Under the pieces are notes generated by a model. The model ran no database searches. It worked only from the letters and a program-made list of their open reading frames with translations, and was not told the DNA's origin. From Promethearchaeota archaeon (lineage in GTDB: Archaea > Asgardarchaeota > Lokiarchaeia > Sigyniarchaeales > SOKP01): 64,000 nucleotides of DNA. Of this stretch, positions 56,814 through 61,406 are shown piece after piece; within the stretch, counting starts at the first letter, position 1; every line of letters starts with the position of its first letter. Location of the stretch: positions 1 through 64,000 of the forward strand of contig JAHPZA010000004.1 of NCBI GenBank assembly GCA_019058445.1. The letters run 5' to 3'. A program made the position numbers and the translations under genes.

Positions 56814-57578
56814 TTAACCTACGTTTTGTTTTTCAAATTTTTCCCAGAAATAAAATAAAATATATTTTCCAACAAGATATGCCAGTAAAATGCCTGCGAT
56901 TTCGTCTATAATATAATGTTGTTTTATGAATAGGGTAGAAAGTATTACACCAATAGCAATGATGAAAGTCGCTATTGCTATAGTTTTAGTAATCACATGG
57001 GGTTTGATTTTATAATATCGATACCAAGCATAAAAGATAATTGTAGATATTGAAGCGTGGAGACTAGGAAAACAATTAAAAGAAGTATCAGTGTGATAAA
57101 TGTTATAGACCTGATCGGCCCAAAAATTACCTCTTATTTTATGAGCTAAAAGTTCTTGTCTATACCAATAAGTTGATACAGGGAAAAAAATGTAAATAAT
57201 GATTGAAAGAGCATTTATTATCACTAATGCCCAGCCAAGCGCTACACCCTTTTCTGATTCTATAAATGCAAAAAAGATCATAGAGATTATAACCATAGGA
57301 TAGAATAAAAACAAATAAAAAATTACCATTTCTGGGACAAATGGAATTAAATCATCAAGACCGAAAAATATAAAATCCAAATGATAACCTGTCCCTTCTG
57401 GATATAAACTACCTGTCCAGTTATATAGAATTGTATTTAAAATTAGATAAAACAAAACCAACATTAAAAATAAATTTACTAGAATATATGTGATTCTTTT
57501 ACTCCAAAGAGTGGATTTTCCCTTAAAAAATATTTTTTCAATCCCATTTTGTATTTTATCATGAATTTTTATAAGCAT
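56814..57578 (-). CDS. PAP2-superfamily membrane protein (AUR1/IPC-synthase-like)
   Basis: NCFPSLHAS and KQHYIIDEIAG catalytic motifs; about 6 TM. Confidence 0.85.
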   Translation of the reverse strand: MLIKIHDKIQNGIEKIFFKGKSTLWSKRITYILVNLFLMLVLFYLILNTILYNWTGSLYPEGTGYHLDFIFFGLDDLIPFVPEMVIFYLFLFYPMVIISMIFFAFIESEKGVALGWALVIINALSIIIYIFFPVSTYWYRQELLAHKIRGNFWADQVYNIYHTDTSFNCFPSLHASISTIIFYAWYRYYKIKPHVITKTIAIATFIIAIGVILSTLFIKQHYIIDEIAGILLAYLVGKYILFYFWEKFEKQNVG

Positions 57579-57788
57579 TCACCATGAATTATAATAAAAC
57601 TCAAATCAAAATTCAATAATTCTATATTTAAACTTAATTCATATAAATTAAATAGACTAAAAAAGAAAATTTGAATAGAATAAGACTATCTGTTGTGCTA
57701 TAAAAGTATTATTATTTTAATTTTTGACAACATAAAAAGTTAAATTTTCAACTAGAAAATTCAAAAAAGAGATTAATTTCTAATATTT

Positions 57789-58181
57789 ATGCCTTTAGTT
57801 AGAGTAGAGATTTTAAAAGGAAAAAGCTCAGAATATAAAAGAGCCATACTAAATGGAATTCATGCCGCTTTAAAAGAAGCTTTAAAAATCCCCGATTATG
57901 ATAGAACACAACGATTATATGAGCTCGATAAATCTAACTTCGAAATTCATAGACAAAGATCAGAAAACTATACAATAATCGAAATAACCATGTTTAGAGG
58001 TCGAAGTCTCGAAGCGAAAAGAAAGCTATATTCAGAAATTGTGAAGAATCTAAAATGTGCCCCAGGAATCGATGGAATGGATATTGTAATTGTTGTACAT
58101 GAGCCTAAATTAGAGAATTGGGGTATTCGAGGAGGAAAACTTCCAAATGAGGCGGGATTAGAATTTAAAATCGAAGTCTAA
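57789..58181 (+). CDS. Tautomerase superfamily protein
   Basis: N-terminal catalytic Pro (MPLVRV), GRSLEAKRKLY, ENWGIRGG. Confidence 0.9.
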   Translation: MPLVRVEILKGKSSEYKRAILNGIHAALKEALKIPDYDRTQRLYELDKSNFEIHRQRSENYTIIEITMFRGRSLEAKRKLYSEIVKNLKCAPGIDGMDIVIVVHEPKLENWGIRGGKLPNEAGLEFKIEV

Positions 58182-58345
58182 CAATTAATTTTTTTTTTTA
58201 AATTATAGCATTAGTTTTTAATCCAATCTGATTGATAGTAAATAGATCTTATCTATTATCGGAAAGAATGGTCAGAAAACAAAAAGTTTTTAACATATGA
58301 GATTATTTTTTTTTATAATTAACAACTACATTGGGAATAAAAAAA

Positions 58346-58459
58346 ATGAAAACGCTTCGAAAAAGCATTACTTTTGATATAAAAATAAGTTTGAGGCGAA
58401 TTTCTTCCCTAGTCTTGTTGTTAAGTTTATTAGATCTACTTTTATTATTATTACTTTAA
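58346..58459 (+). CDS. Putative Leu-rich leader peptide of leuA (37 aa; 22 aa if started at TTG 58391)
   Basis: MKTLRKSITFDIKISLRRISSLVLLLSLLDLLLLLLL*; 13 of the last 16 codons are Leu, using CTA, TTG, TTA and CTT. Confidence 0.7.
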   Translation: MKTLRKSITFDIKISLRRISSLVLLLSLLDLLLLLLL

Positions 58460-58516
58460 GCCTCGTCTCGTTTTATAATATTTGAGGTCTTTGATCTCTT
58501 ATAAACGTGGTGGGGC
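58392..58516 (+). promoter_or_regulatory. Attenuator-like alternative RNA structures in the leuA leader
   Basis: 58460-58478 pairs with 58499-58516 around an inner GAGGTC/GATCTC hairpin; alternatively 58463-58470 pairs with 58392-58399 inside the leader ORF. Confidence 0.6.
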
Positions 58517-58552
58517 GTTGTAATATAAATAAATCAAATTAGGTAATTTAAA

Positions 58553-60166
58553 ATGACAGAAAAAGAGGACATATATGTCTCGCAGATGATGGATAAAATA
58601 CGAGGGTCATTGATCCTTCCTGAAAGGGCGTATTTTTTTGATACGACCCTTCGTGATGGAGAACAGACACCAGGAATTAGTTTCAATCATGAAGAAAAAT
58701 TATCAATAGCTCAAGCTTTAAATGAACTAGGGATTGATATCATTGAGGCTGGATTTCCCGTTATTTCTGAGGGAGATTTTAAAGCATGCAAAGATATTTC
58801 TAAAATGGGTTTAGATTCCGAAATAATGGGTTTAGCTCGCATAAAGAAAATCGACATTGATAAAGTTATTGAAGCAGATATGGATAGCATACACGTGTTT
58901 ATTGCAACTTCAGATCTTCACATGAAAGAAAAATTGCAGATGACACGAGAAGAAGTATTAAAGGATATAGCAGAACTAACTTCATATGCTAAGGAGCATT
59001 ATTCAACAGTTTTATTTTCAGCAGAGGATGCAACACGGTCTGACTTGGATTTTTTAATTAAAGCTAATAAAACTGCTGTTGAAAGTGGCGCTACTCGGGT
59101 AAATATACCAGATACTGTTGGTACCATAACTCCTAATGCTTTTGGTTATATCATTCGAAAAAATTATGAAGCACTACCTAAAAACATAAGAATTGCCGCT
59201 CACTGCCATAACGATTTTGGATTGGCAGTTGCAAATACTATTGCTGCGTTTGAGAATGGGGCGTCTGAGGCACAAACTACAATAATAGGATTAGGAGAAC
59301 GAGCGGGAAACGCGGCTTTCGAGGAAACAGCCATGTCTCTTTATGCTTTATATCGAATACCTATGAATATCAATACCAGAAAAATTTTTCCTACAGCAAA
59401 ATTAATAGAAAGCTATTGTGGTGGAAAGATTAAAATAGGAAGATTGCAGCCATTAATCGGCCAAAATGCGTTTGCCCATGAATCTGGCATTCATGCTCAT
59501 GGAATGATAAAACATGCGCGTGTGTATGAACCAATTACACCAGAATTGATAGGAATTCGACGCTCTGATGATGTTGAGCAAATAGTTAAAAAATCGATTA
59601 AATTAGGAAAGCATACAGGAGGGCATGCCCTTAAAGCAAAATTAGAGGATTTAGGAATTCATCCTACAGATATACAATTTAGAAAAATCTTCGATCATAT
59701 CAAAAGATTTGGAGATAAAGGGCATGAAGTAATGGAAGAAGATTTTTTAGCAATTGTAAAAGATGTTATGGGTGAACTACCCGAAGAAGAGCAATATGTA
59801 AAAATTGAGGAACTGACGGTTTTAACCGGCTCCGTTACTCCTACCAGTACCGTTAGGTTAAAGATTCGTAATAATGGAGATTATATAGAAAGAACTGAAT
59901 CTTCTATAGGCGTAGGTCCTGTTGATGCATCATGTAGAGCAATAGTTAAATGCTTTGAGCCTATGAGTAAAGTTAAGCTTTTGGAATATAATATTGATGC
60001 TGTGACTGGAGGAACTGAAGCTTTAGGACATGTTTCCATTGAGTTAATGGATTTAGAAACTAATAATATTGTAAGGGCATCTGCTGCTCATGAGGATATA
60101 GTAATGAGCTCCGTACTTGCGCTTATAAAAGGACTCAATCGTATCGTGAAAGATAAAAATCCATAA
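58553..60166 (+). CDS. leuA: 2-isopropylmalate synthase (DRE-TIM family with regulatory domain)
   Basis: DTTLRDGEQ, FSAEDATR, PDTVG, HCHNDFG, GERAGNA, AHESGIH, GVGPVDA. The Leu-rich leader favours LeuA over CimA. Confidence 0.85.
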   Translation: MTEKEDIYVSQMMDKIRGSLILPERAYFFDTTLRDGEQTPGISFNHEEKLSIAQALNELGIDIIEAGFPVISEGDFKACKDISKMGLDSEIMGLARIKKIDIDKVIEADMDSIHVFIATSDLHMKEKLQMTREEVLKDIAELTSYAKEHYSTVLFSAEDATRSDLDFLIKANKTAVESGATRVNIPDTVGTITPNAFGYIIRKNYEALPKNIRIAAHCHNDFGLAVANTIAAFENGASEAQTTIIGLGERAGNAAFEETAMSLYALYRIPMNINTRKIFPTAKLIESYCGGKIKIGRLQPLIGQNAFAHESGIHAHGMIKHARVYEPITPELIGIRRSDDVEQIVKKSIKLGKHTGGHALKAKLEDLGIHPTDIQFRKIFDHIKRFGDKGHEVMEEDFLAIVKDVMGELPEEEQYVKIEELTVLTGSVTPTSTVRLKIRNNGDYIERTESSIGVGPVDASCRAIVKCFEPMSKVKLLEYNIDAVTGGTEALGHVSIELMDLETNNIVRASAAHEDIVMSSVLALIKGLNRIVKDKNP

Positions 60167-60221: not shown

Positions 60222-61406
60222 CTATTTTAAGAACTCTTCAAGAGAATTATAGACAATTTCTAAAGTATCTAAATCTGGTAAAAATGTTATTCTAAAATGA
60301 TCTTTTCCATAATTACCAAAACCAGAGCCATAAACAGTGCAAATTCCCGTCTTTTTAAGAAGATCTAACACGAATTCTTTATCATTATTCCATTGAGTAA
60401 ATTCTTTAAAATCAATTTTAGGAAATAAATAAAAAGTCCCATCAGCGTTATTACAGGTTAATCCTTCGATTTGCTTTATTCGCTTATAGGAATAATCGCG
60501 TCTCTCTCTTAATTTTTTGACCATTTCATCTGTATGAGGGCCAGGATTTCGAATAGCTTCAATAGCAGCAAATTGAGCTACAGAATTTGCACATAATCTT
60601 GCTCGAGCTAATTTTTCAATACCCTCCTTTAATTCTGCTAATTTATTTAGCTTATCATGGTAATAGATATATCCCATTCGCCACCCGGTTGCAAGATGAG
60701 CTTTTGAAAATCCATTCATTCCAATAATAGGTACGTCATTACTAAGAGAACTAGGACATACATATTCTTTTTCATAGGTTATTTGATCATAGATTTCATC
60801 AGATAAAATAGGTAAATCATATTCACCTGCTAAATCAATGATCTGTTTGATTTTATTTCTACTATATACTATTCCCGTTGGATTATTGGGAGAACAAATC
60901 AAAATGGCTTTAGTTTTATTAGTAATTTTCTTTCTCAAATCATCAATATTAGGTTCCCAATTATCACTTTCGTCAAGTTCATATTCTACTGGAATCCCAT
61001 CAAAAAATTTGGAATAATTAATATAAACTGGATAGGACGGACCAGGGATAAGAAATTCATTATTATTATCTAATAATCCGGCCATAACAAAAAAAATACC
61101 TTCTGTGACTCCAGATGTAATTAAAACATCGTCCGGCTTAAGATCTATGTCATTTTTATTATTTTCATATTTACATATCGCTTCGCGTAGCTCCCTCACA
61201 CCTAAACTATCAACATAATAATTTTGTCCAGCAAAGGTAGCATCCGCAGATGCTTGTGAAATATATTCTGGAGTTTTAAAGTCATATATAACTGGATCTC
61301 CAATATTTAAGTGATATATTTTTTGACCTGTTTTTTTCAGTTCATTCGCGACTGCTGCTACATCTCTTATTGCGTATTCGAGATCTCTTAACCTCCTAGT
61401 AACCAT
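60222..61406 (-). CDS. PLP-dependent class I/II aminotransferase (alanine aminotransferase-like)
   Basis: YAIRD, LNIGDP, PNNPTG, SDEIYD, GFSKAHLATGWRMG, HFRITFLP. Confidence 0.9.
   Translation of the reverse strand: MVTRRLRDLEYAIRDVAAVANELKKTGQKIYHLNIGDPVIYDFKTPEYISQASADATFAGQNYYVDSLGVRELREAICKYENNKNDIDLKPDDVLITSGVTEGIFFVMAGLLDNNNEFLIPGPSYPVYINYSKFFDGIPVEYELDESDNWEPNIDDLRKKITNKTKAILICSPNNPTGIVYSRNKIKQIIDLAGEYDLPILSDEIYDQITYEKEYVCPSSLSNDVPIIGMNGFSKAHLATGWRMGYIYYHDKLNKLAELKEGIEKLARARLCANSVAQFAAIEAIRNPGPHTDEMVKKLRERRDYSYKRIKQIEGLTCNNADGTFYLFPKIDFKEFTQWNNDKEFVLDLLKKTGICTVYGSGFGNYGKDHFRITFLPDLDTLEIVYNSLEEFLK

Follow-up and report, generated by a model that had tools for sequence, protein, structure and literature searches.

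A leucine-rich upstream reading frame and an adjoining RNA hairpin form a conserved leader of leuA in Loki-type Asgard archaea

Introduction

The stretch of DNA considered here, referred to as the window, comprises 64,000 nucleotides (nt) from a Promethearchaeota archaeon (positions 1 to 64,000 of contig JAHPZA010000004.1, assembly GCA_019058445.1) and carries leuA, the gene for 2-isopropylmalate synthase, behind a short upstream open reading frame (uORF) that closes on a run of leucine codons and abuts a stable RNA hairpin. A uORF with a terminal leucine run and an adjoining hairpin was found in all 64 leuA leaders compared, those of this archaeon and 63 related genomes, representing 14 genera; the arms of the hairpin covary, and the same cognate-amino-acid logic is seen at four genes of this genome. 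Judged from sequence, the uORF is very probably a leader peptide gene serving leuA as a cis-acting leucine gauge, that is, a leucine sensor of one kind or another that is read by the ribosome. Leucine would then regulate leuA through this leader, and a direction of effect and an output step are proposed below.

The Leader Reading Frame

The uORF (product P0001) occupies positions 58346–58459 of the forward (+) strand, in a window of 31% GC, and counts 37 codons from its ATG start. Its TAA stop lies at 58457–58459, which leaves a gap of 93 nt before the leuA start at 58553. The leucine cluster begins at codon 22, and 13 of the final 16 codons specify leucine, using CTA, CTT, TTA, and TTG. Seven of them are consecutive (CTA, CTT, four TTA, and CTT, at 58436–58456, +) and make up the proposed sensing site. 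The initial annotation of this region had given the same translation, coordinates, leucine counts, and gap, all of which were reproduced from the sequence, and had raised the concern that such leucine runs might arise at a background rate.

The leucine richness of the uORF exceeds chance. Its background set consisted of 3259 ATG-started reading frames of 8–90 codons from upstream regions of the same 31% GC genome, with reading frames of at least 90 amino acids (aa) serving as gene proxies (n = 3846, 87% coding). The leuA uORF is the lone outlier among these small upstream frames: it is the only one with more than eight leucines in its last 16 residues, the next best having 8/16, and the only one with a leucine run longer than five. 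Set against the composition of the background uORFs (12% leucine), its leucine content has a binomial p of 4e-10. Pfam and NCBIfam contained no match for the encoded peptide.

Conservation in Related Genomes

We surveyed the order to which the archaeon belongs (154 genomes, 75 with a leuA ortholog) and analyzed the 64 leaders with enough upstream sequence. These come from 11 genera of one family (f1) and three genera of another (f2) of the Promethearchaeia, or Loki-type Asgard archaea, and belong to LeuA proteins whose identity to that of the window ranges from 95% down to 67%. The orthologous uORFs have a median length of 36 codons and end 82–132 nt (mostly 87–99 nt) before the leuA ATG. Each of the last four codons is a leucine codon in 57–62 of the 64 leaders, a run of at least four leucines lies inside the final six codons in 57/64, and the median is 10 leucines per last 16 residues. 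All six leucine codons (TTA, TTG, CTT, CTC, CTA, and CTG) are used across the leaders, with up to five different ones in a single leucine column; what is conserved is therefore the ‘leucine codon’ and not a nucleotide string. Outside the leucine run, the peptides diverge freely, and a run and a helix that persist while all else changes bear the signature of selection.

The hairpin begins at the first base after the uORF stop (58460–58516, +, 57 nt) and has a pyrimidine-rich 5′ arm, a purine-rich 3′ arm, and several G-U pairs. It is the minimum-energy fold, at −19.1 kcal/mol (z −4.1; 0/200 dinucleotide shuffles were as stable), and has the form that the initial annotation had drawn. Across the relatives, the 66 nt after the stop fold as a hairpin in 64/64 leaders, starting 0–6 nt after the stop and spanning 40–61 nt, with a median z of −4.3 and a z below −2 in 63/64. 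Its 3′ end lies 33–43 nt before the leuA ATG in 61/64 leaders (mode 36) and is followed by the consensus N-T-T-R-W-A and then by A-rich sequence. In 55/64, the fold is more stable on the sense strand than on the antisense strand (−19.6 vs. −15.4 kcal/mol), with 144 G-U pairs; the structure is therefore likely to act as RNA of the + strand, which implies that the region is transcribed and disfavors a DNA operator.

Leucine-rich uORFs and stem covariation among relatives, which the initial annotation had proposed to look for, are both present. Covariation was scored on an unfitted MAFFT alignment of 14 leaders, restricted to the hairpin, in which 84% of the cells are paired, compared with 45–60% when the partners are slid; double changes occur in 12 of the 17 hairpin pairs, and 0/500 shuffles reach the observed values. 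An arm swap that needs no alignment gives −11.0 kcal/mol for a leader’s own basal arms and −6.95 kcal/mol for foreign ones, the own arms being better in 61/64. RNAalifold, applied to the raw 237-column MAFFT alignment of whole leaders, which is a poor alignment, returned no structure. A covariance-model search matched both strands of the palindromic region, and its alignment was not used for pair counts.

Beyond families f1 and f2, no such uORF was found at the leuA loci of four order-level relatives (families f3 and f4), at 20 sampled from further Asgard families and classes with an upstream GC of 25–52%, or at 13 from Hadarchaeota, Methanophagales, or bacteria. A cmscan of positions 57500–59000 against Rfam (E ≤ 1) returned no family, RF00512 (Leu_leader) included, and its single sub-threshold hit was a chance match inside leuA. 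A blastn search with the intergenic region and the hairpin against the whole genome found no second copy; the leader is therefore not a repeat or mobile element.

A different arrangement occurs in family f28, which belongs to another Asgard class: at three loci (L179, L180, and L182), a conserved uORF reading MNS plus three or four leucines lies ~247 nt before leuA. It could be an unrelated leucine leader.

Cognate Leaders at Other Genes

On its profile matches, the gene downstream of the leader (58553–60166, +; product P0002, 537 aa) is a 2-isopropylmalate synthase, distinct from the citramalate and homocitrate synthase paralogs. Against NCBIfam NF002085 (2-isopropylmalate synthase; cut-off 517), the protein reaches 581.8 bits, and it contains the Pfam domains HMGL-like (PF00682), HCS_D2 (PF22617), and the allosteric LeuA_dimer (PF08502). 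The initial annotation had allowed for a citramalate or homocitrate synthase instead, a doubt that, so far as sequence shows, was not borne out, the citramalate synthase being a separate paralog. Two LeuA paralogs are encoded elsewhere in the genome, on contigs C9 and C10, and the former is the citramalate synthase (cimA; TIGR00977, 672 bits, cut-off 450). The C10 paralog (438405–439760) is without the C-terminal allosteric domain and stays under every NCBIfam cut-off; it may be homocitrate synthase-like or a short 2-isopropylmalate synthase.

A genome-wide scan for single-residue-rich uORFs upstream of genes found cognate leaders at three more loci. An isoleucine-rich uORF of 22 codons, with 11 isoleucines in its last 16 residues, stands 117 nt before cimA (C9:413878–413946, +) and recurs in 13 related loci of families f1 and f2, where the leaders share a conserved hairpin whose loop is rich in pyrimidines and which is followed by U-rich sequence. 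Similarly, a tryptophan-rich uORF (C6:1236705–1236761, −), with six TGG codons in strict W-x alternation (6 Trp of 18 residues), precedes by 164 nt the gene trpB2, whose product is a TrpB-like enzyme (NF009057, 638 bits). This leader recurs in ~16 loci of families f1, f2, and f4. Its last Trp/Arg codons form the 5′ arm of a small hairpin that covaries and has the stop codon in its loop, and a U5–U7 tract comes 35–60 nt later. Both the cimA and the trpB2 leaders look more terminator-like than the leuA leader.

The third locus is leuS, which is preceded at 195 nt by a leucine uORF ending in five leucines (C6:1143081–1143155, −). Here again the stop is followed by a hairpin with no base in between, and then by interlocking complementary segments. 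Conservation of this leader is confined to three relatives, of which two share the genus and the third belongs to a different genus of the family. In a scan for uORFs with an immediate hairpin, 21 modules were found, and the uORF is residue-rich in those of leuA and leuS only. The leuS product itself (C6:1140108–1142885, −) is a leucyl-tRNA synthetase of the bacterial type, with 956 bits on TIGR00396 vs. 294 bits on the archaeal TIGR00395.

The isoleucine and tryptophan leaders at cimA and trpB2 support a sensing role because amino-acid-sensing leader peptides predict cognate leaders. The initial annotation had proposed looking for cognate-residue uORFs in the ilv, trp, his, and thr leaders of this genome. 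The genome-wide uORF scan gave Ile/cimA, Trp/trpB2, and Leu/leuS; at the thresholds used, there was no His-, Thr-, Phe-, Arg-, or Met-type leader. Two other small residue-rich reading frames lie upstream of genes on contig C6. One (449510–449638, +) encodes a 42-aa peptide with a thrice-repeated, Cys-rich SCKCGGDCIS, 87 nt before a gene for a radical SAM/SPASM-type protein (449726–450985, +), and has the look of a RiPP precursor and its maturase rather than of a cysteine leader. The other (939312–939476, −), is a 54-aa His/Cys-rich frame that precedes an acetolactate-synthase-like gene by 142 nt; it resembles a small metal-binding protein rather than a leader.

Pairing Within the Leader

A second helix may form inside the uORF. 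In the window (58348–58404, +), positions 58348–58360 pair with 58391–58404, a segment that contains TGAGGCGA, at −10.5 kcal/mol (z −2.0). In the relatives, the mean z of this 5′ helix is −1.27, with 25/57 below −1.64, and the partner segment mostly starts 56–72 nt upstream of the stop. In 41/57 swaps, a leader’s own arms pair better than foreign ones, and some of the changes are compensatory (GCUUCAA/UUGAGGC vs. ACUUCAA/UUGAAGU), which gives the 5′ helix moderate support from sequence comparison. The tract of leucine codons is a U-rich linker between this helix and the 3′ hairpin.

The initial annotation had proposed a different partner for the same uORF segment, namely a stem between 58392–58399 and 58463–58470 that would compete with the hairpin, the position of the ribosome on the leucine run choosing between the two structures. 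This pairing can form, as a duplex of −11.2 kcal/mol (z −1.8), and scores better than shuffles only in relatives at genus level and in a few further leaders (L001, L004–L006, and L009; z −1.8 to −2.7). It is not conserved, however, with a mean z of −0.53 over the 64 leaders, and the whole fold of 58385–58475 is no better than shuffles (z 0.03). The 58392–58399 segment pairs at least equally well with the uORF start region at 58348–58360, which is its better-conserved partner. The leucine codons, moreover, lie between the two partners of the competing stem, which a stalled ribosome would hold apart. We therefore do not count this stem as a general antiterminator.

To gauge the effect of a parked ribosome on leuA, we masked a ribosome footprint on the leucine codons. 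The predicted accessibility of the leuA ribosome-binding site rises from 0.47 to 0.55–0.58, going up in 42 leaders and down in 6, and in the window’s leader alone it rises from 0.33 to 0.71. In these models, the rise across leaders is modest and is driven by base composition, U-rich vs. A-rich.

Genomic Context, Promoter-Like Signals, and Transcription

The leader is bordered upstream by a gene of the tautomerase family (57789–58181; Pfam Tautomerase_2; stop at 58179–58181), just past whose stop lies a run of 11 T (58189–58199, +). This run is likely that gene’s oligo-T terminator, the signal that genes of this genome usually carry; a T tract of at least five occurs within 60 nt of the stop in 58% of this genome’s genes. 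If the tautomerase-family gene ends there, as is likely, the leuA leader needs a promoter of its own. On the other side, leuA is monocistronic and is followed by a convergent aminotransferase gene (60222–61406).

Two TATA-like elements upstream of the uORF are candidate promoters on sequence grounds. The distal one, TTTTTAA (58287–58293, +), lies at −59 to −53 of the uORF ATG, with T at −57 to −55 in 40–41/64 leaders, and would yield a leadered uORF mRNA. The proximal one, TTTATAAT (58312–58319, +), lies at −34 to −27, within a T/A-rich block conserved at about −38 to −28 in the 64 leaders, and would yield a near-leaderless uORF mRNA. A Shine–Dalgarno (SD)-like GGGA (58333–58336, +) stands 10–13 nt before the uORF ATG. 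Across the leaders, the motif is GGGA or AGGA at −13 to −10, and G at −12 and −11 (33/64 and 29/64, respectively) makes these the most informative upstream columns. The A-rich spacer of 36 nt between the hairpin and leuA (58517–58552, +), whose length is tightly conserved, contains the SD of leuA, AGGT (58541–58544), at −12. This is the genome-wide peak position of SD-like words (166/2690 genes, against a background of ~10), so that the uORF and leuA each have an SD-like motif at the −12 position preferred in this genome. The anti-SD was sought in the small-subunit rRNA, and no 16S rRNA gene was found in this assembly. The leuA frame cannot be extended upstream so as to draw on the hairpin’s SD-like 3′ arm, since an in-frame TAA stands 9 nt ahead of the ATG.

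Traces of transcription come from two sediment metatranscriptomes with small shares of such sequences, available as assembled contigs from which starts, ends, and levels cannot be read and in which gaps in coverage carry no weight. A 151-nt contig of a relative (~89% identical) runs from 58415, in the leucine tract, across the hairpin to 58566 in leuA, and further contigs cover 58372–58443. The 151-nt contig is weakly suggestive of, and compatible with, co-transcription of uORF and leuA, DNA carry-over being possible.

A Proposed Mechanism and Its Alternatives

In the scheme we propose, transcription would start upstream of the uORF, and the dwell time of the ribosome on the leucine tract would report the supply of charged tRNA-Leu, the key element being the terminal run that ends 0–1 codon before the stop. 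The tract, single-stranded and U-rich, would be held between the 5′ helix, which includes the uORF start region, and the 3′ hairpin. Covered by a slow ribosome when leucine is scarce, or vacated when it is plentiful, this linker would set the output of leuA. The output that we tentatively favor is premature, factor-driven termination or cleavage of the naked leader by an aCPSF1/FttA-type factor or an RNase. The parked ribosome, flanked by the two helices, would shield the U-rich linker from that factor. aCPSF1/FttA is the obvious archaeal candidate for such a termination or cleavage factor.

Several observations weigh against a leucine gauge of this kind. The 64 leaders are relatives and not independent samples, so that the counts given above overstate their statistical weight, and the terminal leucine run is in large part (TTA)n, a DNA motif of low complexity. 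The hairpin has no oligo-U tract behind it, the spacer at 58517–58552 being free of T runs of five or more; this absence of a strong U-tract, remarked on in the initial annotation, holds in the window and in the relatives alike. A run of at least five T follows the hairpin in only 4/64 leaders and occurs anywhere between the uORF stop and the leuA ATG in 19/64, vs. 47% of generic upstream windows. Nor does the leader pair specifically with the leuA start: in the 64 leaders, neither hairpin arm has a conserved partner in the spacer, SD, or AUG (z values of 0.1 and 0.4), the terminal leucine codons have none with the spacer (z +0.39), and the last 66 nt of the uORF have none with the leuA ribosome-binding site (z +0.28). 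A TATA-like AATATAAA (58522–58529) just 3′ of the hairpin, at −31 to −24 of the leuA ATG, is a possible second, internal promoter that would give a leaderless leuA mRNA, although such an mRNA would conflict with the SD conserved at −12. Finally, if the mRNA channel is taken to reach ~11–14 nt 3′ of the P-site, a ribosome on the leucine run would not disturb the hairpin, and one that terminates at the stop codon would unwind no more than ~5–7 nt at its base; the regulatory sign is therefore not derivable from the structure. On the same geometry, melting of the hairpin by a stalled ribosome was set aside.

Within the sensing hypothesis, the output could instead be translational, with the leader governing how readily 30S subunits reach the leuA ribosome-binding site. 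In this form of translational attenuation, which we regard as possible and place below factor-driven termination, a ribosome-free, U-rich leucine tract and the A-rich spacer would compact around the hairpin and cut 30S access to the leuA SD and AUG, and a stalled ribosome would keep the site open. The hairpin-to-ATG spacing of 33–43 nt in 61/64, the leuA SD at its genome-typical position, the lack of a terminator-like U-tract, and the higher predicted accessibility with a parked ribosome in 42/64 all fit this reading, for which there is experimental precedent in bacteria (bioRxiv 10.1101/834739). Against it, neither the leucine tract nor the hairpin arms have any arrangement-specific complementarity to the binding site (z +0.1 to +0.4 vs. 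composition-matched shuffles), and the shift in accessibility is small and explained by base composition alone. Shielding of the linker and translational control would both give the right regulatory sign, and sequence alone would not choose between them. Classical transcription attenuation, in which the hairpin is the terminator, 58392–58399/58463–58470 is the antiterminator, and ribosome position selects, is improbable as the output. Its competing stem does beat shuffles in the closest relatives and a few others and, together with the 5′ helix, provides this genus with a set of segments like the 1:2, 2:3, and 3:4 pairings. However, the stem is not conserved over the 64 leaders, the leucine codons lie between the would-be partners so that a stalled ribosome separates them and frees neither, and no U-tract follows the hairpin. 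Archaeal RNA polymerase is known to terminate at oligo-T and not at hairpins. With the geometry above, these points mean that the classical terminator/antiterminator logic does not transfer to this leader. Some other output has an equally small chance.

Readings without a leucine sensor fare less well than the sensor as a whole. The uORF could be constitutive or encode a small hydrophobic, tail-anchored peptide, with the hairpin stabilizing or processing the leuA mRNA; the basic N-terminus and ~19 mostly hydrophobic residues of the window’s peptide could indeed form a membrane helix, and hairpins near 5′ ends can stabilize mRNAs. This is unlikely, however, since only the leucine content is conserved, and many orthologs break the segment with D, E, N, S, or H. 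Isoleucine, valine, and phenylalanine, common in membrane helices and in AT-rich genomes, go unused, the protein family databases have no match for the peptide, and the association with leuA is invariant; a membrane peptide would also not predict an Ile-rich uORF at the paralogous cimA or a Trp-rich one at trpB2. Far less probable still is an element acting at the DNA level, with the inverted repeat as the operator of a dimeric transcription factor or as part of an internal leuA promoter and the leucine run as noncoding, AT-rich (TTA)n. Such an element could draw on the TATA-like TTTTATAA and TTATAAA inside the arms and on the one 3′ of the hairpin, at −31 to −24 of the ATG. Yet the arms covary without a fixed half-site (56 distinct 5′ arms among 64 leaders), and the G-U pairs and the sense-strand preference would be meaningless in duplex DNA. 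The ATG-started leucine frame is open in every ortholog, with leucine kept through synonymous codons, and the SD at −12 argues for a leadered leuA mRNA.

Significance and Comparison With Known Systems

Leader-peptide attenuation is a textbook bacterial mechanism, and full-text searches of a library of papers found bacterial attenuators only, with no report of leader-peptide control in any archaeon. Our broader and still tentative proposal is that Loki-type Asgard archaea run a set of ribosome-read gauges (Leu at leuA and leuS, Ile at cimA, and Trp at trpB2) whose output would differ from the terminator/antiterminator switch of bacteria. Parked between two helices, a sensing ribosome would decide between survival of the transcript and its factor-mediated termination or cleavage, or else would govern 30S entry at a fixed distance behind the hairpin. 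If true, archaea would have a form of uORF control intermediate between attenuation in bacteria and uORF regulation in eukaryotes. The case is deeply conserved, covarying, and multi-gene, and it comes from the archaea that are the closest lineage to eukaryotes. It would show archaeal ribosomes used as metabolite sensors, which implies that translation is functionally coupled to the fate of the nascent transcript, and the U-tract-less architecture would bear on how archaeal transcripts end prematurely and how ribosome-binding sites are gated. The leaders would also help to annotate paralogs, a leucine leader marking isopropylmalate synthase and an isoleucine leader marking citramalate synthase.

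The closest likeness in layout is to enterobacterial leuL (RF00512) and to trpL, hisL, pheL, thrL, and ilvL, which also combine a short reading frame before the first pathway gene, a run of codons for the end product, and a stable RNA structure at the stop. Like the classical attenuators, moreover, several amino-acid genes of one genome have cognate leaders. Unlike the leuL type, the leuA leader described here is found in an Asgard archaeon, matches no Rfam family, and has neither a hairpin-plus-U-tract terminator nor a conserved antiterminator. Its leucine run lies at the extreme C-terminus, abutting the hairpin, instead of inside ‘region 1’, and its hairpin-to-start-codon spacing is fixed.

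Other bacterial systems come nearer in logic. The leaderless poly-Cys small reading frames of mycobacteria (the ‘Cys ribulon’; bioRxiv 10.1101/834739) and ermC are likewise sensory, have a tract of cognate codons, and need no intrinsic terminator, and several loci share the logic of ribosome pausing, as the four leaders do here. In these systems, the downstream ribosome-binding site is hidden by a defined duplex, whose formation a stalled ribosome blocks, whereas no such specific duplex is detectable at the leuA leader. A cognate-codon leader before an aminoacyl-tRNA synthetase gene, as at leuS, has its counterpart in pheM, the leader of E. coli pheST; the leuS leader differs from this in being conserved in a few close relatives only, and it lies on a contig other than that of leuA. 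The favored output, in which a ribosome at the end of the leader frame would gate the access of a termination factor to naked RNA without an intrinsic terminator, resembles the enterobacterial systems tnaC-tnaA, which is Rho-dependent, and mgtL/corL, and the regulatory sign of the tnaC/mgtL type is the right one for the geometry of the leuA leader. The likeness has its bounds. TnaC senses free tryptophan through its nascent peptide and not the supply of codons, and archaea are without Rho, so that the part would have to be played by an unrelated candidate, aCPSF1/FttA, whose role at the leuA leader is conjectural.

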